Made by a program: the position numbers and the translations under genes
Shown: in pieces, positions 5,982-61,108 of the stretch
How positions within the stretch are numbered: the first letter of the stretch is position 1
How the letters are laid out: each line of letters starts with the position of its first letter
Source: a virus
IMG/VR virus record: IMGVR_UViG_3300028920_002946
Span: 118,678-182,677 of that record
Direction: 5' to 3' (one strand)
Length of the DNA: 64,000 nucleotides
Notes under the pieces: generated by a model
What the model was told of the DNA's origin: nothing
The model's database searches: none
What the model saw: only the letters and a program-made list of their open reading frames with translations

Positions 5982-6072
5982 CAGAGCGAAAGCCTTATGA
6001 CGGCCCGCCTGTCGGGTGGCGACGCGACGAACGAAAAGTCCACGAGCCTGTAGCCCTCCGAAACTTCGGCCA

Positions 6073-6306
6073 TCACCAGTCCTCCTCCGGATCCTCCCCG
6101 AGCACCTCTATGCACGCCTGGCGGAACGCCTGCTGGCGGACGTCGGCGAGGGCCTTCATCTCCTCATTGTACCGCCGCCTCTCCCTCCAGGTCAACCTCC
6201 CGAACTTGGGCTTCAGCATCCTGTCGCCATGCCCACCGAAACCGACCTCGCACGACACCTTGTCGATCACCTTCTTCAGCTTCCTCGGGACCTTCGGCCG
6301 CCTCAT
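6073..6306 (-). CDS. Small hypothetical protein
   Basis: ATGA overlap with upstream gene. Confidence 0.5.
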   Translation of the reverse strand: MRRPKVPRKLKKVIDKVSCEVGFGGHGDRMLKPKFGRLTWRERRRYNEEMKALADVRQQAFRQACIEVLGEDPEEDW

Positions 6307-6791
6307 CTCGCCCCCGCCTGCTTGCAGTTGTCGGAGCAATACTTCGCGTACTTCCCCTTGTGGGAGAAAAACCTCTTGCACACGGGGCAGCGCTTCAACT
6401 CACGGATGCCGTACATCTTCAGGTAAAGGCACATGTTGTAGCACACCACGGCCTCCGGCCACGGGGCGTCGGCCGCCTTTATGGCCACATTCCTCTTCTC
6501 CCCCGCCCTGCCGCCCTGCAGCGGCTCCACGAACTCCTCCAGGGACGGCTTCATGTAGGAGTCGACGTAGTTGACGACCCGCCTGGACACGCCGTTCTCG
6601 ACGAGGTCCACGAGCATCTTTTTGAAGTCGGCCCTGAACTGCGACATGTCCGGCAGGCTCTCGACCGCCCTCCCGGCCGTCTCCGCCGTGAACCCGTGGT
6701 CTGACTCGGACAGCGCGGAAACGACGTCCTGCGCGCCCGCGTCGCCGTTGGCGAACCTCACGAAGAGTGGCTCGACCCTTCCCGCCGGCAT
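6303..6791 (-). CDS. Hypothetical protein with C-terminal CGNR-like zinc finger
   Basis: LKRCPVCKRFF...KYCSDNC. Confidence 0.65.
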   Translation of the reverse strand: MPAGRVEPLFVRFANGDAGAQDVVSALSESDHGFTAETAGRAVESLPDMSQFRADFKKMLVDLVENGVSRRVVNYVDSYMKPSLEEFVEPLQGGRAGEKRNVAIKAADAPWPEAVVCYNMCLYLKMYGIRELKRCPVCKRFFSHKGKYAKYCSDNCKQAGAR

Positions 6792-6795
6792 CGCG

Positions 6796-7116
6796 CTACC
6801 CCAGTATCCTCATGAACCTGTTCATCCTCGCCGCCCTCTTCTTCTGCGCCGAGAGGAGATGGACCTTCCTGCGCTTCGGGTCAACCCTCAGCCGGAGATC
6901 CGGCACCTTTTCGCAGCCGATCGGTATCACGAACACGGCCGCCGTGATGCCCGCCGCAATCTGCCTCTCGAGGTGGCCCAGGACATCCCCCTTGCCGACG
7001 AGCATCCCGGATCCGACGTGCTCCTCGACCATGCGGTAGGCCTCGGACACCACCTCCCGGAGCCTGTCGACGTCGAGATCCAGCCTCGGCCTTGGAACTT
7101 CGGAACCCACGGGCAC
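6796..7116 (-). CDS. Hypothetical protein
   Basis: ORF packed in the operon. Confidence 0.55.
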   Translation of the reverse strand: MPVGSEVPRPRLDLDVDRLREVVSEAYRMVEEHVGSGMLVGKGDVLGHLERQIAAGITAAVFVIPIGCEKVPDLRLRVDPKRRKVHLLSAQKKRAARMNRFMRILG

Positions 7117-7180
7117 CCCCTCATGGGCGCAGACTAAATCAACTCGTTATTACGTGTTTGACCTGCGCGACACGGCCCCG

Positions 7181-8176
7181 TCACGTAACACTTTGGTATC
7201 CCGCGGCCGCGAGGGCCCGGCGCATGCCCGAAACCAGGAACCTGCTCCCCCCGAACACCACGAGCACGGACGGGAACGGGGCGCTGTTGCTCATGCCCCC
7301 GAACTTGAGCCGGCCCTTTATGTATATGCGATATCCGTTAGAAGCGTACTCGTGCCACCACTTCGTGTCTGTACGTGAGGGTACAAGACAAACAACCATA
7401 CATCCCTGCAAACTTTCCTCATAAGCTTTCTGCATCCACTTCACCACACTTCTACCATAAGGAGGATTAAGCCACAAGGATATCTTGTCCGTCATTAAAG
7501 ATTTGATGAACCCGCCAAAAATGGGTATAATAGCGTTATGAACAACACAACCATCGCTTACTGCGCCGGGCTTTTCGATGGTGAGGGCTGTATTCACATC
7601 AAGAAAAGAATTTCCAAGGCCCCCAGCCGAAAAGAGAGGTCTCCCAACTACATGCTTACTGTCAAGCTGAAAATGGTGCACAAACCAACGATTGAACTGT
7701 TCAAGAAAGTATTCAAGGTTGGGACAATAACATTCGAGAAACCTGGAAAGAACAACAAGCGCATTGCATGGAGATGGAATGTCGCCGCCCATGATGCCAT
7801 CACAGTTCTCACAACAATGCGGCCCTACCTCAAAATCAAAGTCGGAGAAGTCGATACTGCCCTTGAATTCATCAAGATTAACACCAGATCCGTCTACGGA
7901 GTCAGAACCGTCCCTTCTCACATCCTTGCTGAAAGAGAACGACTTTACCAGAAAATGCGCTTTCTCAAGAAATTCGAATGGAAAGTGCCTGTTTGCCAAT
8001 GACCAACTACAAGACAACCCATCATCTCGTTCTGTGTAATATCGGCCACATTTGGAGTTGTCGTGCGACGCGCAGACGTCGATGTCGAAGTGGCACACGG
8101 AGTCCACGGCCTTGTAGAAGTCATCCGGGGTCTCCCACTCCGTGCTGTTGCTGCTGAACATGACCTTGGTGTCCAT
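7181..8176 (-). CDS. Phage Dam-type N6-adenine DNA methyltransferase with ~170-codon in-frame insertion
   Basis: MFSSNSTEWETP..FDIDVCAS..DDGLSCSW and WLNPPYG..LVPSRTDTKWWH..KGRLKFGG..APFPS halves flank the insert (about 7493-8002). Confidence 0.85.
   Translation of the reverse strand: MDTKVMFSSNSTEWETPDDFYKAVDSVCHFDIDVCASHDNSKCGRYYTERDDGLSCSWSLANRHFPFEFLEKAHFLVKSFSFSKDVRRDGSDSVDGSGVNLDEFKGSIDFSDFDFEVGPHCCENCDGIMGGDIPSPCNALVVLSRFLECYCPNLEYFLEQFNRWFVHHFQLDSKHVVGRPLFSAGGLGNSFLDVNTALTIEKPGAVSDGCVVHNAIIPIFGGFIKSLMTDKISLWLNPPYGRSVVKWMQKAYEESLQGCMVVCLVPSRTDTKWWHEYASNGYRIYIKGRLKFGGMSNSAPFPSVLVVFGGSRFLVSGMRRALAAAGYQSVT
7503..7531 (+). promoter_or_regulatory. Sigma70 promoter for the nested endonuclease (probably leaderless)
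   Basis: TTGATG-17-TATAAT, ATG 7 nt after the -10, no SD. Confidence 0.7.
7538..8002 (+). mobile_element. Single-motif LAGLIDADG homing endonuclease gene, antisense inside the methylase
   Basis: IAYCAGLFDGEGCIHI motif; YLKIK; lower GC than flanks. Confidence 0.9.
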
Positions 8177-8179
8177 AGG

Positions 8180-9157
8180 CTACCCCTTGAGCAACGCCTT
8201 GATGTCTATGGCCCCCGCGTCAATCCTGCCCCTGTCGTAGTACCTCCAGCGGGCCTTCCAGTTGTCCATCGCGTCCAGCTTCCTCGGCATGTGGGGCCAC
8301 GTTATGTGCTGGAAGGTCAGCTTGCCCTGTCCGTCGGTGCCCGTGTAGGACTTGGCGTTGAACTGCATCTCGCGGATCTGCTCCATGGTGCACATCGCCC
8401 GGGCGCCGCCGCCCTCGCCGGGGTTCACGAAGAACTTCATCCCCTTGAGGGCCCTACCGATTCCCGTCCGAAGGCGCTTGTACTTGCCGTAGGGCGTGCC
8501 GTAATACGCGTATCCGCTGCATATCGCGAGGATGTGCGTGTGGTGCCCCTCGTTCAGCCACCCGTTCGCGCGCGCCTGGACATACGCCTTGGTGAGCGGG
8601 AGGTTGAATATGCCCACCCCGCCGTCGGTCCATATCTTCCCGCGGTCGGTGTCGAGCATCTCGCCGAAGAACCACATGGCGGCGAACGACCTGCAGGCCG
8701 CCTCCGCCATCCCGAGGCCGCCGTCCTTGGCCTCCCAACTCTTGAAGAAATGCGTCCTGCCCCCTACCTCGTCCACGCTGGTGCATATGAACGGCACGAC
8801 GGAGTCGCCCAAGAGGGCCCCGCCGCCGAAATGCTTCGCATGAACGTCAACATACGGCTTGCGCGGGTACAGCGGCACCTTCAGGAATCCCCGCTTGGTA
8901 AACATCCTCTTGATGACGGCGGCGGTTTTCCTGTCAGACTCCCCGCGCCTGCCCATCAGAATGCCATTGAATTCCTCGCACGCCATGCCGAGCGAGAGGC
9001 AGCTCATGACAACCGAGCCGGCGGACGTCGTGACCGCCATGTCAATGAGATCCGTGATCCTCTTGTTCGTCTGGCGCTCGATGTGCTCTATCTGGGCCGT
9101 CTCGTAGGGCATCTTCGCCCCGCCGCCCTCGACGACCAAAACCACGTGCCTCTCCAT
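8180..9157 (-). CDS. Patatin-like phospholipase
   Basis: LVVEGGGAK oxyanion loop, TTSAG nucleophile elbow, TDGG catalytic Asp. Confidence 0.8.
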   Translation of the reverse strand: MERHVVLVVEGGGAKMPYETAQIEHIERQTNKRITDLIDMAVTTSAGSVVMSCLSLGMACEEFNGILMGRRGESDRKTAAVIKRMFTKRGFLKVPLYPRKPYVDVHAKHFGGGALLGDSVVPFICTSVDEVGGRTHFFKSWEAKDGGLGMAEAACRSFAAMWFFGEMLDTDRGKIWTDGGVGIFNLPLTKAYVQARANGWLNEGHHTHILAICSGYAYYGTPYGKYKRLRTGIGRALKGMKFFVNPGEGGGARAMCTMEQIREMQFNAKSYTGTDGQGKLTFQHITWPHMPRKLDAMDNWKARWRYYDRGRIDAGAIDIKALLKG

Positions 9158-9182
9158 GCCCAACCCTCCCCGGGGACGGCGG

Positions 9183-9605
9183 TCACAGCCTGTCGCCCCT
9201 CTTCATGTCGATCCGCATGCTGCCGAACGCCACGTCGCCGTCCCGCCCGTAGGCCAGGATGTCGCCGGGCCGCACGGACACCTTGCGTATGGCGCATTTT
9301 CTCACGGGGTCCATGAACCGGAGGGTGTCCTTCGCCCTCCGCTCCTCCGCATATGCGTGGTACGCGCCGCCCCAGACGCCCTCGTCGCCGTCGGGCGGAC
9401 CCCCGCCCCCGAACGGGTCGACGGCCGTCAGAATCCCCCCGTCGTCGGACAGCTCGTCGGAGTAGCGGGACTGGGCCTGGAACAGCGGCGCGAGCCTGTT
9501 TCCGTCAACGATGGAGAACACCTTCCAGAACTCGACGTCCTGGCCGGCCTTCTTGATCTCGCGCAGGGCCTTCTTCGTCTTTTTCCTGTCCACCACCAAA
9601 CACAT
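9183..9605 (-). CDS. Hypothetical protein
   Basis: ORF packed in the operon. Confidence 0.55.
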   Translation of the reverse strand: MCLVVDRKKTKKALREIKKAGQDVEFWKVFSIVDGNRLAPLFQAQSRYSDELSDDGGILTAVDPFGGGGPPDGDEGVWGGAYHAYAEERRAKDTLRFMDPVRKCAIRKVSVRPGDILAYGRDGDVAFGSMRIDMKRGDRL

Positions 9606-9613
9606 GGGTCGCC

Positions 9614-10000
9614 TCAGTCTATGTCAAGGTCGTCCGAGCCGCAACGGGGGCACCTCTTGTCGGGCTCCCTCTTGAAGTCGCCGTACGTGCGCCACCTCTG
9701 GTCCCCCAGCTTCCGGAGCATGCGCCGGAACTGCCACCATATGAGCCACCAGGAGTGCGGGTCGCGCCTCCCCCACCCGCACTCGTCGGCGAACCATTGG
9801 TCGTGGTCCATCCGCCGCGGCCACCAATACTCGCTGACGTATGACAGGAAGAGGGAGAAGGGGTTGTAGCCCCACCCCACACGCACCGGCCACCGGACGA
9901 AGTCGAAGTAGCCGCCAAAACGCCCAACCTTCAGACCGAAGTCCCAAAAGTCGTCCTGCGACCAATGGCAGGAGTGGCAGTGGAGGTACGCCATGGTCAT
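9614..10000 (-). CDS. Trp-rich hypothetical protein with terminal CxxC pairs
   Basis: CHSC and CPRC; ATGA overlap with upstream gene. Confidence 0.6.
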   Translation of the reverse strand: MTMAYLHCHSCHWSQDDFWDFGLKVGRFGGYFDFVRWPVRVGWGYNPFSLFLSYVSEYWWPRRMDHDQWFADECGWGRRDPHSWWLIWWQFRRMLRKLGDQRWRTYGDFKREPDKRCPRCGSDDLDID

Positions 10001-49762: not shown

Positions 49763-49838
49763 GGCCCTATCGTCTAGTGGACCAGGACGGGTGGTTCTCA
49801 GCCATCAAACCGGGGTTCAATTCCCCGTAGGGCTACCA
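49763..49838 (+). tRNA. tRNA-Glu(CTC)
   Basis: Cloverleaf, loop TT-CTC-AG, CCA end. Confidence 0.92.
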
Positions 49839-49957
49839 TATAGCAAGCTTGTCGCGAGAGGACTCCGCGCGGGGTCTCCGCCCCCAAGGCCTGGCCCGGG
49901 CCGGCAGGGCGGGAGTAGCGGCGGCAGGGCGCTTTCACTACGGATCGGAGGAGGCCG

Positions 49958-50638
49958 ATGGATACTGCAATCGTGGAAATCAGGGCCGCCGAGGGCGGCG
50001 ACGACGCAAAGCTCCTCGTCGAGGAGCAACTGAAGATTTACGGCAAGGCGTGCATGCTGCATGGGCTATGACTGGCCATCCTGGAGATGCGGCCGGGATA
50101 CGTCTGCATCAAGGTGTCGGGACCCGGGGCCGGAAAACTCTTCGGGCCGGAGGGGGGCGGCCACAGGTGGCAGAGGGTGCCGCCGACGGAGAGGCGCGGC
50201 CGCGTCCAGACATCAACCGTCACGGTAGCGGTTCTTCGGGAGATCCCCGATCTGTCGCTCGACATCCCCGACGAGGACATTGAGATCACGACAGCCCGGG
50301 GATCCGGCAGGGGCGGCCAGCACCGCAACGTCACGGACTCCGCCGTGCAGATCAAACACGTCCCCACGGGCGTTATCGTGAGGTGCGAGTCGGAGCGCAG
50401 CCAGCACCGCAACATGGAACAGGCCATGGGTGTGCTGAAGCAGCGCATCCACCATCTGAGGGCCTCCTCGGTTTCAGAGGGGCGCAACAGCAGGCGCCGG
50501 CAGCAGGTGGGGAGCGGCATGCGCGGCGACAAGGTCAGGACCGTTCGCGTGAGGGACGGCAGGGTCGTCAACCATCTCAACGGCGGGCGCACGACGTACA
50601 AGCGGTATTCGCAGGGGCATATCGAGGATTTGTGGTAG
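49958..50638 (+). CDS. Class I peptide release factor-like protein (PPT, GGQ; no domain 1) with in-frame TGA at codon 38
   Basis: GGAGGAGG RBS; IVEIRAAEGGDDA...GL*LAIL...GGHRWQRVPPTE..GRVQTS..GGQHRN; TGA at 50069-50071. Confidence 0.8.
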
Positions 50639-50644
50639 CGACAC

Positions 50645-50720
50645 GGCCCGGTCGTCTAGTGGTTAGGACATTGGGTTTTCATCCCAAAGATCGCGAGTTC
50701 GATTCTCGTCCGGGCTACCA
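50645..50720 (+). tRNA. tRNA-Glu(TTC)
   Basis: Cloverleaf, loop TT-TTC-AT, CCA. Confidence 0.92.
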
Positions 50721-50756
50721 CCCACTCCGGGGGGCGCTATTGAAAAAGGTATTAAC

Positions 50757-50785
50757 TTTACAACAGCGCCCCTCGGGAGTATATT
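50757..50785 (+). promoter_or_regulatory. Internal promoter TTTACA-17-TATATT
   Basis: Immediately before tRNA(CAT). Confidence 0.6.
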
Positions 50786-50796
50786 GATGGGTTACA

Positions 50797-50873
50797 GGGC
50801 CCATAACTCAGTCGGTCAGAGTAGCGGACTCATAATCCGTCTGTCCAAGGTTCGAGCCCTTGTGGGCCCACCA
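50797..50873 (+). tRNA. tRNA(CAT), probably Ile2 (lysidine) rather than Met
   Basis: Ile2-like body GGGCCCA/CTCATAA; leader 1 contains the ATA codon. Confidence 0.85.
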
Positions 50874-50894
50874 CCCATCACAAGGAGCCCCCAA

Positions 50895-51170
50895 ATGATC
50901 ATCACGGCGAATTACGCCCCAGGGCAGCGTGTCTCGATAGTCGATGCCGAACTCACGGCGAGGGTCATGGGGGTGCTGTTCACCGACCGCGGCGTGTCGT
51001 ACATATGCCGATGGTATGACGGCCAGGAATTCCAAGAGAACGAGTTCGGTGACTCAGAGCTGTCCTCGACGGGAACACAGAACAGGGTGGCGGCGATATG
51101 CGGGGCGAGCGATGAAAAAGGCGACAAGGGAATTGCCGAAAAGGTTGCCGAGGCTAACCGCCGGAACTGA
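50895..51170 (+). CDS. Small hypothetical protein
   Basis: AGGAG RBS. Confidence 0.55.
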   Translation: MIITANYAPGQRVSIVDAELTARVMGVLFTDRGVSYICRWYDGQEFQENEFGDSELSSTGTQNRVAAICGASDEKGDKGIAEKVAEANRRN

Positions 51171-51600
51171 CATCAAGGCCTACCTCAAGGAGAAGCGCCG
51201 CTGTGAGTGCGCGCTTCTCAAGGCCATGCGCGAGGCCCACGCCGACCTCAAGGAACTCCTCAAAAAGATGGAGTCCCATTGGGAGTACGAGGATCTCGTC
51301 TACCGGTTCTACCACCACAGCTACAAGGCGCAGTTCGCCGCCGACCTCGGCAACGAGGTGTTCGACAGGCTCCTGTCTTTGGTGCCGTGGGGACACCGTG
51401 AATGCCCCGTGTTCGTACGCAGGCTGCGAGCGCGGTGCCGGCGGCCGTGGACCATGAGAAGGTCGAGGGCCGACATCGAACTGATGCTCCACGCGCGCTA
51501 CTTCCTGGAGATGGCCGTGAGGTACGGCAGGAGATACAAGCGGGGGCCGAATCCCATGCCGAGCGGGTATGCGGCCCTGATGTGCCTGTACGGATTATGA
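51112..51600 (+). CDS. Hypothetical protein
   Basis: ORF between tRNAs; HARYFLEMAVRYG. Confidence 0.55.
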   Translation: MKKATRELPKRLPRLTAGTDIKAYLKEKRRCECALLKAMREAHADLKELLKKMESHWEYEDLVYRFYHHSYKAQFAADLGNEVFDRLLSLVPWGHRECPVFVRRLRARCRRPWTMRRSRADIELMLHARYFLEMAVRYGRRYKRGPNPMPSGYAALMCLYGL

Positions 51601-51604
51601 TAAC

Positions 51605-51680
51605 GCCCCCGTAGCTCAGACGAATAGAGCCTCGGACTTCTAATCCGATTGCCCGGGTTTGAGTCCCGGCGGGGGTTCCA
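51605..51680 (+). tRNA. tRNA-Arg(TCT)
   Basis: Loop CT-TCT-AA, CCA; T-loop TTTGAGT variant. Confidence 0.88.
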
Positions 51681-51681
51681 C

Positions 51682-51756
51682 GCGGACGTAGCTCAATGGT
51701 AGAGCTCGACCCTTCCAAGGTCGCTGTTGTCGGTTCGAGTCCGATCGTCCGCTCCA
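51682..51756 (+). tRNA. tRNA-Gly(TCC)
   Basis: Loop CT-TCC-AA, U73, CCA. Confidence 0.92.
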
Positions 51757-51775
51757 ATTTGTCAAGCGGGATCAG

Positions 51776-52393
51776 ATGAGAAAATTTCGGGATCTATGGA
51801 AACCCTACATCAACCGGCAGAAGTGCTCGGAGTGCCAGCTTGTGACGGCGCTCAACGCGTACACCTATCTGCACGGCAGGCCATATTGCGAACAGGATTC
51901 GGACGAGTACGAGCGCCTTGTCGATATGGTGGGTGCCAGGCACGGGTCGGCGATACACATCGAGAGGGCGTGGAAGCTGTTGGGGATATGGCCCGTCGCC
52001 AGATATATCTCCTTCGATGATGTTCTGTCGCACAGCCCGAGCCACATTTACATGAAGAGGCTACCGCACGACAGGAACTCGAATTGGTCGAAGAGGGTGA
52101 CATGGGTCAAGCGCAACGGGACGATCCAGCGCCAGTCGAAGTCGAAGGCCGTGCTGCCGGCCGAGGTGACGATATGGCATCCGACGGTCGGCTACCACTC
52201 ATGTCTAATTATCGACCGCAACGAGGCCCTCGACATGGTGAGGGTGTCCAACTTCAAGCACGACACGCATTGGTCGGGCTGGATGTTCGTTTCGGAGCTC
52301 AAATGTCTCGAGAGCCGGGTCACGAGCGGGAAGGACGGCTTGAACAGCGATGGTCAGCAGTGGCTGTACAGGGTTTTCGGAACGCGGGAGTAA
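51776..52393 (+). CDS. Papain-fold (C39-like) peptidase candidate
   Basis: Q..SECQLVTALNA, YHSCL, VSNF; stop lies inside tRNA-Gly(CCC). Confidence 0.5.
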   Translation: MRKFRDLWKPYINRQKCSECQLVTALNAYTYLHGRPYCEQDSDEYERLVDMVGARHGSAIHIERAWKLLGIWPVARYISFDDVLSHSPSHIYMKRLPHDRNSNWSKRVTWVKRNGTIQRQSKSKAVLPAEVTIWHPTVGYHSCLIIDRNEALDMVRVSNFKHDTHWSGWMFVSELKCLESRVTSGKDGLNSDGQQWLYRVFGTRE

Positions 52394-52458
52394 CTCAGTG
52401 GCGGAGTCTCTGCTTCCCAAGCAGATGGTCGCGGGTTCGAACCCCGCCTCCCGCTCCA
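52384..52458 (+). tRNA. tRNA-Gly(CCC)
   Basis: Loop TT-CCC-AA, U73, CCA. Confidence 0.92.
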
Positions 52459-52473
52459 CCGTAAGGAAGTTTT

Positions 52474-52812
52474 ATGGCCTTAGACTACATCTTCGATGAG
52501 GATGCAGTTCTCAAGGAAGCGGGCGAGTGGCCCGAGATACATTGTAGTGCCGAGGTGTTTTGCAACAGGTGTCGGGTCAAGCACACTACACTCAAATTCA
52601 CCATGAGCCATCCAGATTACAAGCTACCCAAGGACGTTGTAGGTTGCTTCTATGGGCATGATATGCGCGCCTGTATGTGGTACAACGGAAGAATCGAAAA
52701 GGGGTGGTACAGGAGTAGCGACGTTATCTGCTGCCCCCAATGCGCCCCTAAAGAGAAACGTCATGAAAGATGGAGCTTGTTCTGGTGGAATTTCTGGGGT
52801 CGGTTTTTCTGA
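52474..52812 (+). CDS. Cys-rich hypothetical protein (lower GC)
   Basis: Flanked by duplicated CTCCCGCTCCA (52448, 52850). Confidence 0.55.
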   Translation: MALDYIFDEDAVLKEAGEWPEIHCSAEVFCNRCRVKHTTLKFTMSHPDYKLPKDVVGCFYGHDMRACMWYNGRIEKGWYRSSDVICCPQCAPKEKRHERWSLFWWNFWGRFF

Positions 52813-52865
52813 AGAGGAAGGCTTCACACGAAAGCTGAACAGTCCCCCTCTCCCGCTCCATATAT

Positions 52866-52941
52866 GCGGCAGTAGCTCATCCGGTAGAGCACCTGCTTGC
52901 CATGCAGGAGGTGGTCGGTTCGAGGCCGGCCTGCCGCACCA
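52866..52941 (+). tRNA. tRNA-Gly(GCC)
   Basis: Loop TT-GCC-AT, CCA. Confidence 0.9.
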
Positions 52942-52991
52942 GATTAATCCAGGACGCCCGACATATTATATTGGTGTATGGAAGCCGTAAA

Positions 52992-53106
52992 ACCCATGGG
53001 GCCGGAGGCAAGACAACCGACCGCGCGGCGGCGCCGACGGGGGACAACTTCCCCGGCCTCACGAAGCCGGGCGCCCTTGAGGTTAGAGTCGCCTTTCCCC
53101 ATGGGT
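52992..53106 (+). ncRNA. Unidentified structured RNA candidate (~115 nt)
   Basis: 10-bp terminal stem ACCCATGGGG/CCCCATGGGT, extended bulged helix, two apical hairpins; TTAATC-17-TATATT promoter at 52944-52972. Confidence 0.5.
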
Positions 53107-53120
53107 CCCGGCATATGTAA

Positions 53121-53197
53121 GCCCCTGTAGCTCAGCAGGATAGAGCACGAGTTTCCTAAACTCGGTGTCCCGCGTTCGAGTCGCGGCAGGGGTGCCA
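53121..53197 (+). tRNA. tRNA-Arg(CCT)
   Basis: Loop TT-CCT-AA, CCA. Confidence 0.92.
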
Positions 53198-53204
53198 AAT
53201 ACAG

Positions 53205-53783
53205 ATGGAGGATGTCATGAGGGCAACGCCCAAGAAGTCCGCATCGAAGGCCCCGCGCCCGAGGCGCAATAGCACCCGCAAGGCTGCCGCCAAGCCCAAG
53301 CCGAAAAAGAAGAATACCCCGCCCGACGAGGAGGGGTTCCTCCATGACCGCCTCCTGACGGTCGAATCGGCCCTCAAGAACTTGACCAAGCACGTCCGCC
53401 ACATCGAGAAGGCCCTCGATGACGCCGAGGGAAGGGGCCGGGAAAAAGCCGCCTGGGAGGGTTTCGGCGAGGGCATGAGCGCCCTGTCGGGCCTCATCAC
53501 CGACATCCGAACCATCGAGACCAACATCCGCGATATAGTGGCGCAGAATCCGACCGACCGCCTCGAAAACGCGCTCGGCCGCGCCGTCATGCTGTCGCTG
53601 CTGTGGTTCAGGGAGGGCGACCGCGAACCTCTGCAGATACACAGGATCCTCGTTGCGAAGGTGCTGGACATCTTGAAGGAGTGGGCCTCCAAGAAGGATG
53701 TCAAAACCTTCGAGGGCAGCATGGACCAAGCCCTCGCCAGGAGCGTGTACGACGCCCTCGGCGGCCATTCGATTCTCGACTGA
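53205..53783 (+). CDS. Hypothetical protein with basic N-terminal tail
   Basis: GGAGG RBS suggests start near 53217. Confidence 0.6.
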   Translation: MEDVMRATPKKSASKAPRPRRNSTRKAAAKPKPKKKNTPPDEEGFLHDRLLTVESALKNLTKHVRHIEKALDDAEGRGREKAAWEGFGEGMSALSGLITDIRTIETNIRDIVAQNPTDRLENALGRAVMLSLLWFREGDREPLQIHRILVAKVLDILKEWASKKDVKTFEGSMDQALARSVYDALGGHSILD

Positions 53784-53829
53784 CAACCAAACGAGGCGGC
53801 GCCGCCGCCGCAGAAGAAAGGCGTTCAAA

Positions 53830-54348
53830 ATGGCAATGACCGTACCGGACGACGTCGTGCCGATCATCACGCCGGCGATACGGAATCGTATCGCGCAGCT
53901 ACTCGAGGAGGCCTTCAAGCTCGCCTCGCTGGCAGACTGCTCGGATGTCCTCGAGGGAAGCATCGACAAGCTGACGGCGAAGTACTTCCAGGAGGGCGGG
54001 TCGCCGAGAGATCTCGATGACATGCCGGACAACTCCGACCCGCCGTCGATGTCGATCCTCACAACCGATCTTCCGTCGCCCCGGTCCCTCCTCGAGTCCG
54101 GCGGCCAATCCCGGGCGGTTGGCAGGAACGTCAAAAAGACCCGGGGGATCCCCGTCAGCGAGTTGGTTGAGGCCGACAACTATACGGCGCGCGGAAACCC
54201 CGTGTCCAGGTACAAGGGTGTGTCGTACAGCGGCATGGTGCGCAGGCCGTGGGTGGCCAGGTACAAGGGGAGGCGCCTGGGCTGCTACAAGGATGAGGTT
54301 TCCGCCGCGCAGGCATACGAGCGCGCGCGGTCGAGGAAAAGGGGTTGA
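53830..54348 (+). CDS. Protein with C-terminal AP2-like DNA-binding domain
   Basis: SRYKGVS...WVARY..RRLGCYKDEVSAAQAYE. Confidence 0.7.
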   Translation: MAMTVPDDVVPIITPAIRNRIAQLLEEAFKLASLADCSDVLEGSIDKLTAKYFQEGGSPRDLDDMPDNSDPPSMSILTTDLPSPRSLLESGGQSRAVGRNVKKTRGIPVSELVEADNYTARGNPVSRYKGVSYSGMVRRPWVARYKGRRLGCYKDEVSAAQAYERARSRKRG

Positions 54349-54373
54349 CATCGACCCGCAACGGCGGTATATT
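54345..54373 (+). promoter_or_regulatory. Promoter of tRNA cluster 2 (TTGACA-17-TATATT)
   Basis: Perfect -35, 17-nt spacer. Confidence 0.85.
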
Positions 54374-54427
54374 TGATGGATGTCTGCGCCGGGCGTGCCG
54401 CGGCGCAAACCAGCAGGGAGATTCGGA

Positions 54428-54496
54428 ATGTCTGTGACGGTCCTCAAACGAGTCGTTGTCAAGCGTCGGGTATCGACGCCAAGGGGGGCCGTGTAG
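54428..54496 (+). CDS. Attenuator leader peptide 2 MSVTVLKRVVVKRRVSTPRGAV
   Basis: GGGAG RBS; own translation; GTG GTC AAA CGA GTT AAG CGT CGG GTA match the downstream tRNAs. Confidence 0.85.
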   Translation: MSVTVLKRVVVKRRVSTPRGAV

Positions 54497-54527
54497 CCTA
54501 GTTTCCGTCTCACGCGATGAATACACG

Positions 54528-54561
54528 ACCCCCGGGCGAGCAGCCTGGGGGTTTTCTTTTT
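54528..54561 (+). terminator. Intrinsic terminator (attenuator 2)
   Basis: ACCCCCGGGC/GCCTGGGGGT plus TTTCTTTTT; 54522-54533 alternatively pairs with 54484-54495. Confidence 0.85.
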
Positions 54562-54637
54562 GGGTCCGTAGCTCAGTTGGTAGAGCTTGCGCCTTTTAAG
54601 CGTAAGGTCCCGGGTTCGAAACCCGGCGGGCCCACCA
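54562..54637 (+). tRNA. tRNA-Lys(TTT)
   Basis: Loop CT-TTT-AA, CCA. Confidence 0.92.
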
Positions 54638-54670
54638 GAGGGGACTTGCTATTCTATGCATATCCTTTTC

Positions 54671-54745
54671 GGGCGTGTAGCTCAGTCGGTGCAGAGCGCG
54701 TGTTTTACAGGCACGAGGTCGAGCGTTCGAGTCGCTCCGCGCCCA
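54671..54745 (+). tRNA. tRNA-Val(TAC), CCA not encoded
   Basis: Loop TT-TAC-AG. Confidence 0.85.
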
Positions 54746-54762
54746 CGGAAAGGGATGGTGCC

Positions 54763-55173
54763 ATGGGAAACGAGGAAATCGACGGCTTCAGCACGGAGAT
54801 GATAAGAGAACTCAGGAACGACTTTACATTCTTCATCGCCATGTCCATGCTGAAAATAATGGCGTCATCAACGCCGGACGCCAAGAAGTTCATTCGCGAG
54901 GTGGTCTGGAAATGGCGTGAAAAACAGGTGCAGGCACTGCACATAGTGGCGAGCGAGATGGACAAGAGGATGTTTGAGGACAAGGAGTTCTCCGAATTGT
55001 TCGGCCCCGTCATGAGGCAAGTGAACAAGACGCAGCGCGGGGTGATGATAGACTGCATACGCAAATTCTGCGACACCATGGAGGAAGCCCTCGTCGCGTC
55101 CATGTCGTCCGAAACGGACGGAGGCGACGGGGATCCCTTGAATGAAGAAGGCGAAGGCAACGTGCCCTCATAG
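54763..55173 (+). CDS. Hypothetical protein
   Basis: Stop lies inside tRNA-Lys(CTT). Confidence 0.55.
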   Translation: MGNEEIDGFSTEMIRELRNDFTFFIAMSMLKIMASSTPDAKKFIREVVWKWREKQVQALHIVASEMDKRMFEDKEFSELFGPVMRQVNKTQRGVMIDCIRKFCDTMEEALVASMSSETDGGDGDPLNEEGEGNVPS

Positions 55174-55239
55174 CTCAGCTGGTAGAGCAGCGGACTCTTA
55201 ATCCGCGAGTCCCAGGTTCGAACCCTGGTGGGGGTACCA
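55164..55239 (+). tRNA. tRNA-Lys(CTT)
   Basis: Loop CT-CTT-AA, CCA. Confidence 0.92.
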
Positions 55240-55256
55240 ATTTTTCAGGGCGGCAA

Positions 55257-55333
55257 GCCCCCGTAGCTCAGCGGATGAGAGCACCACGCTCCGGACGTGG
55301 GGGTCGCGCGTTCGAGTCGCGCCGGGGGTACCA
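55257..55333 (+). tRNA. tRNA-Arg(CCG)
   Basis: Loop CT-CCG-GA, CCA. Confidence 0.92.
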
Positions 55334-55347
55334 GCCAAGGGGTGGGC

Positions 55348-55854
55348 ATGGAAGGCGGATGGTTCGTCAAGCTTCTGCTTCTCACCGTCCAGAGGACGTG
55401 GGCCCTTCTGACGGGCGGGGTGGAGTCCCTGTTCTACCTGAAGCATTGGTCGAGGGGCCACAGGATCATCGCGAATGCGCGCGACCTGATAAGGGACACC
55501 GCCGAACTCGAGAGGTTCTACAAAGAGATGCACGTGGTCGAATACCGGCGGGATTGGCTTGACAGATGGTCGTTCCCGTGGGTCACGGCCGTCAAACGGA
55601 AGGGCGACTGCGAGGATTTCATGACGCTGTCGTACGCGATAATGAAGGAGAAGGCGAAGTGCGTGAGGACAGCCCTGTACGGTAGGAGGGACGGCAAGAG
55701 AGGCGGCCACGCCGTGCTGATCGTCCGCGAGTCCGGCGGGTGGGTCTTGATGAGCAACATGCACCGGTATATATGGTTCGACAATCCGCATGACGCGGCA
55801 CGGAAGCATTACGGAAAGGACACGACCAGGTACTACTTCCTGGACAGGACATAA
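55348..55854 (+). CDS. Transglutaminase-like cysteine peptidase
   Basis: KGDCEDF and GHAVL motifs. Confidence 0.7.
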   Translation: MEGGWFVKLLLLTVQRTWALLTGGVESLFYLKHWSRGHRIIANARDLIRDTAELERFYKEMHVVEYRRDWLDRWSFPWVTAVKRKGDCEDFMTLSYAIMKEKAKCVRTALYGRRDGKRGGHAVLIVRESGGWVLMSNMHRYIWFDNPHDAARKHYGKDTTRYYFLDRT

Positions 55855-55861
55855 AACATAC

Positions 55862-55938
55862 GCCCCCGTAGCTCAACTGGATAGAGCGTGCGGCTACGGA
55901 CCGCAAGGTTCCGGGTTCGACCCCTGGCGGGGGTGCCA
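55862..55938 (+). tRNA. tRNA-Arg(ACG)
   Basis: Loop CT-ACG-GA, CCA. Confidence 0.92.
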
Positions 55939-55944
55939 TCTTCA

Positions 55945-56021
55945 GGGCGGTTAGCTCAGCTGGTTAGAGTACGTGGTCGACATCCACGAGGTCGGGAGTT
56001 CGAATCTCCCACCGCCCACCA
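55945..56021 (+). tRNA. tRNA-Val(GAC) with C33
   Basis: Loop TC-GAC-AT, CCA. Confidence 0.85.
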
Positions 56022-56050
56022 TAGACATTCAGGCTGCTTGATGGTATATT
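56022..56050 (+). promoter_or_regulatory. Promoter TAGACA-17-TATATT
   Basis: Directly after tRNA-Val(GAC). Confidence 0.6.
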
Positions 56051-56058
56051 ACGGGCGT

Positions 56059-56298
56059 ATGAAACCTGAAACCGCCGACACACCGACGAAACCTGAAGCG
56101 GTTAACTACGTGGTCGTGTCATGTTGCGCCTGCAACAAGGTCATGTCGGACGACCGACAATGGTTCGACGGCACCGACCTATTGGCCGTCGTGCCCAAGC
56201 ACTTGGTGAGCCATTCCATCTGCCCTGAGTGCTTCGCCGCGCACTACCCTGAAATGCACGCCCGGTTCTCCAAACAGGGTAAAATACAGGCCGGCTGA
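56059..56298 (+). CDS. Small zinc-binding protein
   Basis: CCACNK...W...SHSICPEC. Confidence 0.6.
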   Translation: MKPETADTPTKPEAVNYVVVSCCACNKVMSDDRQWFDGTDLLAVVPKHLVSHSICPECFAAHYPEMHARFSKQGKIQAG

Positions 56299-56362
56299 CT
56301 CCCTAATAATGCTTTAATCGCCACACCTGCTGTACGGACATCAGCAATCAAGGGGATGCCAC

Positions 56363-56872
56363 ATGCAGGCCAGGACTGCCGCTGCCGTTGTGCGCGCAAT
56401 GGACTCGATAGCCTCATCACTCGAGAAAAAGGGACTCCTCAGGGAAGCCGAGGAACTCGATGCGGCGACCAACGCCGTCCAGCGACACGCGACCGACCCA
56501 AGCCAGAACTCGTTCACTTACGACACGTTGCAGCAATATCCCGACTTGATGAAGGCGATCCCTGGTGAGATTCTGTCGGTCATGAAGGCAATGAAAGATT
56601 CAAGCCTATGGTGGCGCGATGACGGTGCCTCCGTTACATTCGACCAATACACATTGGATTCCTCACAGATCAAGACGCTTGCAGCCGCCGGATCCCTCGT
56701 CAAGATATTTCCGGAAGAACACGATAAGTACGGGGATGGGTATCCCGTGCACGACGGATACACAGCGGAATTCAATGTCAAAAGAACGCCACAATTTGAA
56801 CAAGCAGGCACCGCCGCGCTCCAAGATCTCCTCAGGAAAAAGGAATACAAGGAGTTCGACCCGGCCATATAG
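56363..56872 (+). CDS. Hypothetical protein with conserved N-terminal helix motif
   Basis: MDSIASSLEKKGLLREAEELD shared with 49059-49556. Confidence 0.6.
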   Translation: MQARTAAAVVRAMDSIASSLEKKGLLREAEELDAATNAVQRHATDPSQNSFTYDTLQQYPDLMKAIPGEILSVMKAMKDSSLWWRDDGASVTFDQYTLDSSQIKTLAAAGSLVKIFPEEHDKYGDGYPVHDGYTAEFNVKRTPQFEQAGTAALQDLLRKKEYKEFDPAI

Positions 56873-56881
56873 GTGACAGCA

Positions 56882-57229
56882 ATGGACGATGCCAATAAAG
56901 TAGTGCAAGCATACCTCGCCGGGAAGTCAAAGGAAGCGATGGACTTCTCGTCCATCGCGCCGCTGCTCAAGTCCGAGAAGAAAATGGACGACCGCGAGAT
57001 AGCGCGCGCCCTACGGCTCGCCATAGCCGCGGAACACGACGCGGCCCACCTGTACGAACTCATCGCGGACAGTTGCGAGAACAAGGTTGTCCGCGAACTG
57101 CTTCAGGACATCGCCAACGAGGAAAAGGTCCATGTCGGGGAGCTCCAATGGCTCCTCTCCCACATCGACAGGGACAACGGAAGGCTTCTCCAAGAGGGCG
57201 TGGAGGAGGCGCAGGAAATAGCAGAGTAG
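56882..57229 (+). CDS. Ferritin-like/rubrerythrin-type di-iron protein
   Basis: AIAAEHDAAHLYE and DIANEEKVHVGE ExxH motifs. Confidence 0.8.
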   Translation: MDDANKVVQAYLAGKSKEAMDFSSIAPLLKSEKKMDDREIARALRLAIAAEHDAAHLYELIADSCENKVVRELLQDIANEEKVHVGELQWLLSHIDRDNGRLLQEGVEEAQEIAE

Positions 57230-57288
57230 CACATCCCACATCCAGCATCGACACGATCAATAACGACAACGGCAAACAGGGGAGAGCA

Positions 57289-57543
57289 ATGATGAGGGTC
57301 GTCATTGCCTTGGTTGCGCTCGTGTTCTTTTCATGCGCGCCGAGGTTCACGGTCTACCTCCACAGGGAGGACAAGATGAACACGGACGGCATCGTCGTCC
57401 TGTCCATCGACACGCTTGAGGGGGTGCACAAAGGCAAGAGGGTGGTGTACGTCATTAGAAGGGATCTCGGCAGCATCGGGAGCGCGGTCTACGGCGCGAG
57501 GCAGAGAAAAATACAGCCAGAGGTTGACAGTCTCTCGAGATGA
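57289..57543 (+). CDS. Small lipoprotein candidate
   Basis: Signal peptide ending FFSC. Confidence 0.5.
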   Translation: MMRVVIALVALVFFSCAPRFTVYLHREDKMNTDGIVVLSIDTLEGVHKGKRVVYVIRRDLGSIGSAVYGARQRKIQPEVDSLSR

Positions 57544-57552
57544 GGGTATATT
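57524..57552 (+). promoter_or_regulatory. Promoter of tRNA cluster 3 (TTGACA-17-TATATT)
   Basis: Perfect -35, 17-nt spacer. Confidence 0.85.
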
Positions 57553-57574
57553 TGGTTGCACAAGGAGTGATGTA

Positions 57575-57655
57575 ATGGTCTACACGGCGAACAACCCAAA
57601 CCCCGTCCAGCAACCGCGGAACCGCGTTCCGTCGGGGTTGGTGGTATTGCCGTAA
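57575..57655 (+). CDS. Attenuator leader peptide 3 MVYTANNPNPVQQPRNRVPSGLVVLP
   Basis: AAGGAG RBS; AAC CCA CCC CAG CAA CCG match the downstream tRNAs. Confidence 0.85.
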   Translation: MVYTANNPNPVQQPRNRVPSGLVVLP

Positions 57656-57675
57656 GATCAGGCACCAAAAATACC

Positions 57676-57715
57676 AAAGCCCCGGCGGACGAAAGTTCTC
57701 CGGGGCTTTTTCGTT
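57676..57715 (+). terminator. Intrinsic terminator (attenuator 3)
   Basis: AAAGCCCCGG/CCGGGGCTTT with GAAA apex plus U-tract; 57670-57684 alternatively pairs with 57633-57648. Confidence 0.85.
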
Positions 57716-57735
57716 TGGTTCACCTAGGAAAAGAG

Positions 57736-58140
57736 ATGAACACGAAGGATATAGGCGAACGATCCGAGGCACAAGTATTGGCCACCCTCTTAAAAGGGGG
57801 TAAGACAGTACTGAAACCATTCGGAGATAACCAAAGGTACGACCTCGTGGTCGACGAGGATGGAGAATTCCTGAGAGTTCAGTGTAAGACAGGAGTATTG
57901 AAAAAGGGATCAATATACTTCCCGACTTGCAGTAGTTACGGACACCGAGGAAGAGGGAAGAAAGGCTATAAGAGAGAAGCAGACATCTTTGCCGTCTATT
58001 GTCCTGCTACTGACAAGGTCTACATTATCCCTGTCGAAGAAGCACCCGAAAGGCAGTGTTACCTACGGGTAGAGAAAACGAAGAACTCTCAAGACAAAAG
58101 AATTCGATGGGCCGAGAAATACGAATACACGGGTGCGTAG
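57736..58140 (+). CDS. PD-(D/E)XK endonuclease, I-Ssp6803I-like homing endonuclease family
   Basis: GERSE..PFGDNQRYDLV..RVQCKT..DIFAVY; lower GC; stop inside tRNA-Asn. Confidence 0.75.
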   Translation: MNTKDIGERSEAQVLATLLKGGKTVLKPFGDNQRYDLVVDEDGEFLRVQCKTGVLKKGSIYFPTCSSYGHRGRGKKGYKREADIFAVYCPATDKVYIIPVEEAPERQCYLRVEKTKNSQDKRIRWAEKYEYTGA

Positions 58141-58205
58141 CTCAATGGTAGAGCAAGTGGCTGTTAACCACTGGGTTGGGGGTTCAAGTCCCTCCGTGCC
58201 CGCCA
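58131..58205 (+). tRNA. tRNA-Asn(GTT)
   Basis: Loop CT-GTT-AA, G73, CCA. Confidence 0.92.
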
Positions 58206-58230
58206 AATTCAGACCGGTCGCAAATGGCTC

Positions 58231-58704
58231 ATGAATGGCTCAAACGGCTCATGTTATGAGAGATTGACCGGTGAGAAGTTCGTGACGACCGCAATCTACC
58301 CGAACAGGGAGAGGGACAGGCGCGAACTGGAGCGGCTGTCCGACCTCAAGGAGGGCGGCGACGCCTCGATGCTCTTTCACAGCAGGAACGGTACGCTTCT
58401 GGCCCGGGGGTACGCCCGGGTGGTGTACGGAGACCACGGCCCCTACGTCGAGATGTTCAGGGATCAGGTGGAGTGGGCGGCGTGGGAACTCGAACGGTCG
58501 GACATCGGATACTACAACAAGTGGTGGACGAAGGACGGGACCCGCGTCATGCTGTACGAACAGAGGAAGACGGTTGCCGACCTGCCCAACCCGCCCGCCG
58601 GCAAGCGGTCGCACAGGGGGAACAGGAAGGAAGGATACGCTGACTACCGGATAGGAAGACTGTATTTGGATCCTTACGAGGTGGTCATGAAACACGGAGT
58701 GTAG
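58231..58704 (+). CDS. Hypothetical protein
   Basis: VYGDHGPYVE; stop inside tRNA-Pro(TGG). Confidence 0.55.
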   Translation: MNGSNGSCYERLTGEKFVTTAIYPNRERDRRELERLSDLKEGGDASMLFHSRNGTLLARGYARVVYGDHGPYVEMFRDQVEWAAWELERSDIGYYNKWWTKDGTRVMLYEQRKTVADLPNPPAGKRSHRGNRKEGYADYRIGRLYLDPYEVVMKHGV

Positions 58705-58772
58705 CGAAGCCTGGTTATCGCACAAGCTTTGGGAGCTTGGGATCGTCCGTTCAAATCGGACCGCTCCGACCA
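58695..58772 (+). tRNA. tRNA-Pro(TGG)
   Basis: C1, loop TT-TGG-GA, A73, CCA. Confidence 0.9.
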
Positions 58773-58779
58773 GATTTGA

Positions 58780-58855
58780 TGGGGCGTGGCTCAGTTGGTA
58801 GAGCGGCTGACTCTGGATCAGCAGGTCGGAGGTTCGAGCCCTCCCGTCCCAGCCA
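58780..58855 (+). tRNA. tRNA-Gln(CTG)
   Basis: U1-A72, loop CT-CTG-GA, G73, CCA. Confidence 0.92.
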
Positions 58856-58934
58856 GTTTCACCCCCCGGGGTGCGGCCTGTAGCGGGCCGCGCGGCCACA
58901 CGGCGGAAATCAGGCTCCGCCACGGGAGACCAAT

Positions 58935-59009
58935 TGGGGTGTAGCTCAGTGGTAGAGCGGCGGCCTTTGGAGCCGCGCGTCGGGCGTTCGAACCGCCCCA
59001 CCCCAGCCA
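58935..59009 (+). tRNA. tRNA-Gln(TTG)
   Basis: U1-A72, loop CT-TTG-GA, G73, CCA. Confidence 0.92.
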
Positions 59010-59020
59010 TGGAGGAAGTA

Positions 59021-59278
59021 GTGTCAAAGAAAATAGGCAAGGACTCAACGATTGAAGAGGCGATAGCCTATGCCTTTGATCTTGACGGTAGGATGAAGTG
59101 CACGGACTTCAACGGTGTCGCCCACATCATCCATCTGGACGGGTCGACGTTCACGATCAAAAACGCGATCATCAAGAGGTACGGGAGGTTCGTGGTTGTC
59201 TATGCGGAGCACCAGCACCCGATGGTGTGGTTCAAAGACGACCTGTACCGATTCGGATTGACGAAGTACGGAGTGTAG
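59021..59278 (+). CDS. Small hypothetical protein
   Basis: GGAGG RBS + GTG; stop inside tRNA-Pro(CGG). Confidence 0.55.
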   Translation: MSKKIGKDSTIEEAIAYAFDLDGRMKCTDFNGVAHIIHLDGSTFTIKNAIIKRYGRFVVVYAEHQHPMVWFKDDLYRFGLTKYGV

Positions 59279-59345
59279 CTCAGTCTGGTGGAGCGCTGCG
59301 TTCGGGACGCAGAGGTCGCCGGTTCAAATCCGGCCACTCCGACCA
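59269..59345 (+). tRNA. tRNA-Pro(CGG)
   Basis: Loop TT-CGG-GA, CCA. Confidence 0.92.
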
Positions 59346-59373
59346 ATCTTTCACCTGTTTACGATCTTGCGAA

Positions 59374-59450
59374 CGGGAAAGCCCAGTCTGGTCAGAGCAC
59401 TACGTTTAAGGCGTAGGGGGTCGTCAGTTCGAATCTGGCCTACCCGACCA
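59374..59450 (+). pseudogene. Degenerate tRNA, Pro-like body with TAA at the anticodon position
   Basis: Good anticodon and T arms and ACCA end; broken acceptor stem and positions 8-9. Confidence 0.55.
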
Positions 59451-59490
59451 ACTCATGTTGTCCTTTGACAACACTTTCTGTTCAAACAAC

Positions 59491-59519
59491 TTGTAATAAG
59501 TTCCGTTAGGGACTATATT
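59491..59519 (+). promoter_or_regulatory. Promoter TTGTAA-17-TATATT heading the low-GC islet
   Basis: Motif match. Confidence 0.55.
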
Positions 59520-59581
59520 AAGTGGGTAATGATGCGATGCTTATGCACTTCATTCTGTACAAATACTCAAAGGAGAGGGTC

Positions 59582-60145
59582 ATGCATTACCCAACTGTTT
59601 TTGCTGTGTTCTTTCTGCTGCTGGTTGCATGCAATAACAACGATGTGGTGCTCCCGGAAAACTGCACTGAACCAAACGTTGTCGCAGCCTTAGGAACAGG
59701 GTGTAATTCAAGTGCTTCGGAGCTCACGCTTGATTTGGTAGATTCAGCAGAATACTGTGACGCTGAACGTTTGAGATGGACATACGACCAAAACACGTGC
59801 GTGTTACGCTTAGTACACAGCCGCAGCATTCTCAACTGTGCCACCAAGCTTGATGTACGTGCGCGAATTAACAGAGACACAATATTCGTCACCGAATACG
59901 ATGTCCGTTTAGATGATTTACCAAATATTGTAGCCGCTTGTTGTCTGTGCCCGTTTGATACCTACGTAGAAGTGGCAGATGCCCCGTCAGAGGAAATAAT
60001 AGTCGTCCTCTACAGACAACTTTGTATTGGTGCTGGGGAATATAGGGATACCCTCGTGACGCGCACACCACTCGACATTGACACCTCCCCGTCACCATTC
60101 TGTAATGGCTATGTTATACTACAATTAAGGGAAGCGGATGGGTAG
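59582..60145 (+). CDS. Cys-rich lipoprotein (low GC)
   Basis: Lipobox LLVAC. Confidence 0.65.
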   Translation: MHYPTVFAVFFLLLVACNNNDVVLPENCTEPNVVAALGTGCNSSASELTLDLVDSAEYCDAERLRWTYDQNTCVLRLVHSRSILNCATKLDVRARINRDTIFVTEYDVRLDDLPNIVAACCLCPFDTYVEVADAPSEEIIVVLYRQLCIGAGEYRDTLVTRTPLDIDTSPSPFCNGYVILQLREADG

Positions 60146-60232
60146 CAGTTGGCAGATATGATCAAGGAATCTCAAAGCGTAAGGCAAATGGTAACGGAAA
60201 ATCATCGAGATTCTTGAAGAAAGAAGATAAAG

Positions 60233-60667
60233 ATGCCTTGTGCGACACATCTACAGATGGTAGATGAAAACTCGTGTTCATACACGAGCACAATTTATGA
60301 CCTCAAGCACTACATAGAAACTGTCGGTTTCAAGGTGGACCTTCATGCAGCCATTGGGTGTAGGTCTAAACCGTTTGACAGTACTTCTAAAAAGTATGTC
60401 AGTGGAAGGACCTATTACGATCACGATGAGCCATTCCAACGTTTGGTACAAATAGACGAGCCCTGCGTTATATGCGCTGTTATGACGATTGCGCATGAAG
60501 GGGGACACGCACTCCATTATGTGCAAAGCAACAAAGAAAACCAACCTCCTTGTGAGGAAAGAGAACGTAGAGCGTACAGATTGGGGTGGAAGATACTTAA
60601 GGCACTCTCAGTAAGTTTCATTACGAGAGAAATGTGGAAGGAACACCACGAATTGTTAGTCGGGTAG
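60233..60667 (+). CDS. HExxH metallopeptidase-like protein (ImmA/IrrE-like)
   Basis: TIAHEGGH...EERRA; low GC. Confidence 0.55.
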   Translation: MPCATHLQMVDENSCSYTSTIYDLKHYIETVGFKVDLHAAIGCRSKPFDSTSKKYVSGRTYYDHDEPFQRLVQIDEPCVICAVMTIAHEGGHALHYVQSNKENQPPCEERERRAYRLGWKILKALSVSFITREMWKEHHELLVG

Positions 60668-60740
60668 TAGCTTAGCTTGGTAGAGCATTTGACTTTGGGA
60701 GCCAGAGATTTCGTCCGTTCAAATCCGGCCACTCCGACCA
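60661..60740 (+). pseudogene. Degenerate/chimeric tRNA-Pro(TGG)
   Basis: TTTGGGA loop; mismatched stems; last 25 nt identical to the tRNA-Pro(CGG) 3' end. Confidence 0.55.
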
Positions 60741-60745
60741 AATTT

Positions 60746-60822: not shown

Positions 60823-60840
60823 ATTCACCGGAGGCATGAG

Positions 60841-61107: not shown

Positions 61108-61108
61108 A

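Follow-up and report, generated by a model that had tools for sequence, protein, structure and literature searches.

The main finding in this stretch of DNA is a mobile cassette, made of a promoter and a gene for a homodimer-type LAGLIDADG homing endonuclease, that is inserted in a phage Dam methylase gene, antisense to it and codon-aligned with it, and that is probably read through by the ribosomes translating this gene; we would put the probability of this reading at about 0.7. The stretch (hereafter, the window) is 64,000 nucleotides long and was taken from an IMG/VR virus record of 182.7 kb, of which it covers bases 118678-182677. The nested architecture, the absence of the insert from relatives of the methylase, the host frames free of stops in three diverged elements and a recombinant tract around the insert are all read directly from the sequences (Table 1). 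From these observations we infer that the endonuclease is expressed from a leaderless mRNA and that the methylase frame is translated through the insert; the benefit of the open frame would then be an active methylase, unbroken translation of the operon, or both.

Table 1. Features of the interrupted methylase locus (positions in the window)
Feature	Position	Strand	Remarks
Patatin-like phospholipase gene	8180-9163	-	Pfam E 2.5e-8; directly upstream of the methylase, same operon
Interrupted Dam-family (PF05869) N6-adenine methylase ORF	7181-8176	-	331 codons, open throughout
Methylase 5' part, codons 1-58	8003-8176	-	ends DDGLSCSW; codons 42-58 low GC3, foreign
Methylase 3' part, codons 231-331	7181-7486	-	KISLWLNPPYGR and rest of catalytic domain; codons 231-286 low GC3, foreign
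Inserted cassette	7487-8002	.	~516 nt, 172 host-frame codons; missing from all 60 relatives
Single-motif LAGLIDADG homing endonuclease gene	7538-8002	+	154 aa; I-CreI/I-MsoI homodimer type
Sigma-70-like promoter	7503-7531	+	TTGATG-17-TATAAT; sole such site in 2 kb
Inverted repeat, left arm	7478-7496	.	junction-spanning; pairs with 7998-8019
Inverted repeat, right arm	7998-8019	.	junction-spanning; pairs with 7478-7496
Foreign low-GC3 tract	7319-8053	.	~735 nt: insert, ~51 nt of 5' exon and ~168 nt of 3' exon

The 331-aa protein recurs, in a public protein set, on a contig of 463.8 kb, so that the element sits in a jumbo phage; this phage is uncultured, has a GC content of about 64%, and the sample is a marine sediment metagenome. 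The surroundings are a tightly packed block of minus-strand genes with a GC3 of about 0.9 (0.87-0.92 in the genes adjoining the methylase). The Dam gene starts 3 nt past the stop of the patatin-like gene and has a Shine-Dalgarno-like AAGGGG upstream; the block continues downstream with minus-strand genes at 6796-7116, 6303-6791 and beyond, and there is no terminator-like site within 2 kb of the locus. No second copy of either the Dam or the LAGLIDADG gene is present elsewhere in the 182.7-kb record, and positions 6000-10000 have no DNA match in the phage collection. Among sequencing runs, the locus was traced to one DNA run (the probable source) and to no RNA run; the reads of this DNA run gave the source contig alone, with neither an insert-less variant nor an insert-less joint. 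Elsewhere in the window, a cluster of 22 tRNA genes occupies 49763-63720 on the plus strand, and a high-scoring tRNA with the anticodon TTA (63645-63720) would read the stop codon TAA.

Pfam recognises the Dam family in two separated stretches of the 331-aa ORF (E 9e-21, 74.7 bits), the profile match taking in both the NPPY motif and the N-terminal cofactor-binding part, and the columns that are invariant across 40 homologues are kept in the interrupted protein (T16, P17, D33, W58, N237-Y240 and others). The insertion point precedes the catalytic NPPY by five to six codons. All the viral-contig relatives of the methylase (60/60) are uninterrupted there, with the spacing W-x4-W-x-NPPY. In the AlphaFold model of the 331-aa protein, the Dam core has a pLDDT above 90, and the insert (38-74) consists of four helices and long disordered stretches; the best fold matches found by Foldseek are N6-adenine methyltransferases, albeit weak ones, and a sequence comparison of the Dam family with solved structures gave no match. 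If this model is followed, the 331-aa Dam would carry a largely helical or disordered insert of 172 aa before strand beta-4. With an insertion beside the catalytic loop, the enzyme may well be inactive.

The endonuclease ORF gives a Pfam LAGLIDADG_1 match of 27.3 bits (cut-off 23.1). Its motif is AGLFDGEG, with the acidic residue kept (DGEG), D14, G15, E16 and G17 are invariant in its clade, and the profile of this clade aligns full-length with I-MsoI (residues 5-152, E 4e-15), I-CvuI and I-CreI; it has, in other words, the motif, the acidic residue and the one domain of about 150-170 aa of the single-motif, homodimer-type enzymes. The promoter ends 6 nt before the endonuclease ATG, a gap so short that it suggests a leaderless mRNA, and the closest relative of the endonuclease (L062, described below) has kept both hexamers as well as the 6-nt distance from the -10 box to the ATG. 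At the other end of the gene, the endonuclease TGA (8000-8002) directly adjoins the Trp58 codon of the methylase (8003-8005), while towards NPPY the end of the cassette can be placed only to within about 3-6 nt; its size is about 513-516 nt. The inverted repeats across the junctions may be, and this is a guess, the half-sites of a pseudo-palindromic target; a similar junction-spanning repeat is present in the second nested relative, L065 (33-44 / 566-577). The public protein collection includes the 331-aa methylase ORF, and the endonuclease on the opposite strand is missing from it, so gene callers hide such nested genes.

Along the methylase, GC3 is 0.8-1.0 in codons 1-41, drops to 0.33-0.67 in codons 42-58, the insert and codons 231-286, and is 0.93 from there on. 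We read the resulting 735-nt tract as the footprint that co-conversion left when the cassette homed in from a donor allele of low GC, and both this tract and the 60 relatives devoid of the insert suggest indirectly that the endonuclease may be active in homing. In the mechanism that we propose, the endonuclease would cut insert-less Dam alleles in co-infecting phages, and repair would copy the cassette in along with flanking donor exon sequence. In place of removal by a ribozyme or an intein, the endonuclease gene would be kept without TTA, CTA and TCA codons; ribosomes on the methylase mRNA would translate straight through its mirror image, completing the gene, and selection would keep this read-through path free of stops. 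The locus seems to have been caught just after transfer, with the donor exon flanks still attached.

Much of this had been noticed in the earlier note, which was made from the letters and a list of reading frames. The antisense LAGLIDADG gene within a Dam-type methylase whose frame stays open over 331 codons is borne out by the ORFs and the Pfam matches, and so are the promoter, the TGA abutting Trp58, the lack of room for a group I core and the low GC reaching into the flanking methylase codons (a step in GC3 on both exon flanks). The insert had been given as 7493-8002 (510 nt); that it is an antisense cassette with its own promoter stands, but it rather extends from 7487 or 7490 to 8002. The inverted repeats given at 7483-7496 and 7998-8014 are present, with an outer arm that can be lengthened to 11 nt at 82%. 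The spacing taken there as usual for uninterrupted methylases (W-x5/6-W-x-NPPY) has to be corrected to that of the relatives given above.

The two closest relatives of the endonuclease, which come from other metagenomes, are also nested in this way. L062 (62% aa identity, the closest of all, on a 568-nt contig) is antisense, codon-aligned and at the same site as in the window, its host frame being open over the 568 nt into FLNPPYGR. L065 (the next closest, 50% identity, on a 652-nt contig) is likewise antisense and codon-aligned, at a different site directly after WCNPPYG, with a frame open over all 652 nt into IETWVRKA. These contigs are very short, and their host genes are identified by short motifs alone, namely NPPYG(R), DGL..W and W..KA. 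Two other relatives (P0278, 52% identity, and P0279, 50%) are flanked by opposite-strand genes; no further close ones were found in viral contigs, and the best matches reach 38% in metagenome contigs and 34% in genome contigs. Other arrangements with Dam exist as well: one endonuclease relative (L234:2001-3127) is in sense orientation directly upstream of a Dam gene, with a 4-nt overlap with the Dam start, and another (protein P0201) is fused in frame to the C-terminus of a Dam protein.

The residue that precedes NPPY (window 7469-7471) is Leu in the window, Leu in L062 and Cys in L065, and uninterrupted relatives have Met (ATG) at this position in 30/39 and 45/55 cases. From an alignment position of this kind one may draw a weak hint that the residue swap in endonuclease-bearing alleles reflects changes conferring target-site immunity.

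The comparison of frames among homologous inserts that the earlier note had recommended thus gives a clear result: neither L062 nor L065 has a stop or a frame break in the host frame, which favours translation straight through the insert. The note had left three ways for the host gene to survive. Tolerance of a read-through insert of about 170 aa is the favoured one; excision at the RNA level is without support, and the upstream frame meets no stop, so that no restart at Met 7495 is required.

What the open frame is kept for is a different question. Here the strongest alternative, which we think unlikely though well worth taking seriously, is that the methylase is dead and that the frame is open merely to keep ribosomes on the operon mRNA, avoiding Rho-dependent polarity or decay and guarding the downstream genes. 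The packing of Dam in a tight minus-strand block, 3 nt from the upstream stop and away from any terminator-like site, agrees with this idea, as does the location of the insert at the catalytic motif, which is not an obviously permissive loop; moreover, antisense stops are also absent from distant LAGLIDADG genes placed in antisense orientation between other genes, where no host protein is at stake. However, in all three nested cases the frame runs beyond the insert end into the methylase 3' part, and the argument assumes both that the downstream genes are important and that the host uses Rho. A polarity benefit and the benefit of an active methylase are, in any case, not mutually exclusive, and the read-through mechanism is common to both.

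Among these distant genes, the most striking is a double-motif LAGLIDADG gene (L160, 851-1933, plus strand) found between two phage structural genes, where a mirror ORF of 425 codons (L160:689-1966) has 0/53 bad Leu/Ser codons at a GC of 0.44; with no host protein to preserve, this case hints at a role in polarity or translation. In three others (L151:2438-2915, L139:391-1258 and L081:170-671) the stop-free part of the mirror frame coincides almost exactly with the LAGLIDADG body, and a mirror stop occurs every 30-50 nt in their AT-rich flanks.

One could also imagine a simple knockout of a dispensable methylase, the open frame being due to chance aided by codon usage. We consider this improbable, but it deserves a numerical answer, inasmuch as no antisense frame is easier to keep open than a codon-aligned one (mirror stops arise only from TTA, CTA and TCA) and the window element was chosen for its openness. 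The window endonuclease has 10 Leu and 5 Ser codons, as the earlier note had counted, and 0 TTA, CTA or TCA among them. As a null we used 156 distant LAGLIDADG ORFs (GC3 0.45-0.66), in which codons giving antisense stops make up 21% of the Leu codons and 7% of the Ser codons; under this null the probability of an open frame is 0.065 for the window, a value that on its own would leave the knockout some credit, 0.0175 for L062 and 0.0175 for L065, and the joint probability that L062 and L065 are both open is about 3e-4. At conserved four-fold codons, the third base is identical in 26% of cases between the window and L062; this is saturation, so that the codon choices are independent, and the same codon is kept in only 1/11 conserved Leu/Ser columns. 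The non-coding 51 nt of the insert are stop-free in the host frame too (P ~0.34), and the host frame alone is open, the remaining two minus frames of the insert having 9 and 15 stops.

Relatives that are not nested provide a further test of the knockout hypothesis. Five of them, matched for clade and GC3, all have antisense stops (L234 10/33, L231 2/23, L063 3/19, L064 8/26, L067 6/16). In favour of chance, the antisense frame of L066 (44% identity, GC3 0.65) is open too, and no host gene is evident there; its openness may be due to chance, which may occur at higher GC. The remark in the earlier note that chance contributes was nevertheless too generous, each independent homologue having about a 2% chance of openness under the empirical null. 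Judging from these sequences, chance is insufficient to explain the open frame once the homologues are counted. The signal could partly correspond to a filter on arrival, and not to continued purifying selection, and intact exons are no proof of function, because each homing event enters a fresh allele.

Post-transcriptional or post-translational removal of the insert, by an intron, intein or bypass mechanism that we failed to recognise, is very improbable. The idea could draw on the inverted repeats across both junctions, here and in L065, and on the antisense LAGLIDADG genes known in actinophage inteins (bioRxiv 10.1101/2025.01.02.630785). Yet Rfam gives no match at E<=10 on either strand of window positions 7000-8400, L062 and L065, and the approximately 50 nt of the insert outside the endonuclease ORF leave no room for a ribozyme, so that neither a core recognised by covariance models nor the space for one is present, as would be expected for a self-splicing group I or II intron. 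The stem that the inverted repeats could form at the junction is absent from the minimum-energy folds of the methylase-sense RNA, and a role of these repeats in looping out RNA was dropped for that reason. The signatures of an intein are missing as well: the insert peptide matches no Pfam family at E<=10, Hint/intein included, the AlphaFold insert has no Hint-like beta fold, and the downstream junction (SLMT followed by DKIS) has no His-Asn followed by Cys, Ser or Thr. The first insert residues (S, L and S in the three elements) are simply the complements of the endonuclease stop codons. As for ribosomal bypass, there is no stop past the would-be take-off codon.

Hardly credible at all is a split gene, in which an N fragment of 58 aa would assemble with a C fragment, restarted at Met228 (7493-7495), into an active enzyme: an in-frame ATG does lie 3 codons ahead of the 3' part, and T4-like phages, with their gene-in-pieces enzymes created by endonuclease insertion (Aeh1 nrdA/mobE), set a precedent, but the N fragment has no terminating stop and therefore would not be made as a separate fragment, Met228 has no Shine-Dalgarno motif at the usual distance before it, and a stop-free insert, the very feature that is conserved, would be needless. 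Intein, group I or II intron, ribosomal bypass and split gene with restart were all rejected on the evidence given here against each of them. A different outcome of an insertion can be seen in L136:67-844, where the host strand carries, ahead of an antisense LAGLIDADG gene (251-745), a remnant of 30 aa from the N-terminus of an N6_N4-type methylase and, after that gene, a complete second copy of this N-terminus, into TSPPYW, the mirror frame being open for 227 codons and then meeting a stop; judging from this layout, the methylase appears to restart intact downstream of the insert.

Homing endonucleases are generally held to persist within genes only where an intron or an intein removes them. 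The locus and its two diverged relatives provide sequence evidence for a cassette on the opposite strand that would go unnoticed by the host ribosome through codon choice alone. We would therefore suggest, although only tentatively and as a possibility that falls somewhat short of an even bet, that such antisense translational transparency is a third route besides introns and inteins, and that the Dam enzyme is active with a 172-aa mirror-encoded loop by its catalytic motif. If the interrupted methylase works, a position adjacent to the catalytic site tolerates an arbitrary insert of 172 aa, which would be useful for enzyme engineering, and gene callers systematically hide endonucleases of this kind. 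If, on the other hand, the frame is open only against polarity, this would suggest a rule that holds generally for antisense genes within the operons of phages.

Several known systems share part of these features, and we found no paper in which a Dam gene carries a LAGLIDADG cassette that is antisense and devoid of an intein. Nuclear rDNA group I introns can carry homing endonuclease genes antisense to the host transcript, as here, but in their case a ribozyme core removes the insert, whereas in the window none is detectable and there is no room for one. Free-standing phage homing endonucleases split or adjoin their target gene (T4-like mobE/nrdA; intronless homing). They have in common with our element a promoter-bearing cassette, spread by double-strand-break repair and co-conversion of flanking markers; however, they lie between genes or split the host into separately translated pieces, whereas the host frame in the window is continuous.

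The only antisense LAGLIDADG genes reported so far are inside inteins, in the non-canonical inteins of actinophages that carry an antisense LAGLIDADG or VSR-like endonuclease (bioRxiv 10.1101/2025.01.02.630785). There too a LAGLIDADG gene lies opposite a host ORF that stays open across the endonuclease, but the host-frame peptide is a self-splicing intein, whereas the insert in the window has neither Hint blocks nor splice-junction residues and is almost wholly the mirror image of the endonuclease.

Together with these inteins, the closest published parallel is the ShiLan domain, in which a homing endonuclease of the HNH type is hidden in mycobacteriophage DNA methylases (Arsenault, Gosselin and Gogarten 2025, PMC11855218; Gosselin et al. 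2023, PMC9957025), to which one may add the methylase Taj_79, with its in-frame lone LAGLIDADG domain (PMC9957025). The predicted structure of ShiLan has the insert looped away from the methylase core, and its distribution suggests active homing (PMC11855218; PMC9957025). The window element resembles ShiLan in that an endonuclease gene is nested in a phage methylase gene with no detectable intron, intein or other splicing element, that the host frame, open in diverged copies, would be read through, and that the predicted structure loops the insert off the methylase core. In ShiLan, however, the endonuclease is of the HNH type, on the same strand in another frame and without a promoter of its own, whereas the endonuclease described here is a LAGLIDADG enzyme encoded on the opposite strand, codon-aligned with its host, with its own promoter and a probable leaderless start, and it has settled beside the NPPY motif of a PF05869 Dam methylase in an uncultured, high-GC jumbo phage.
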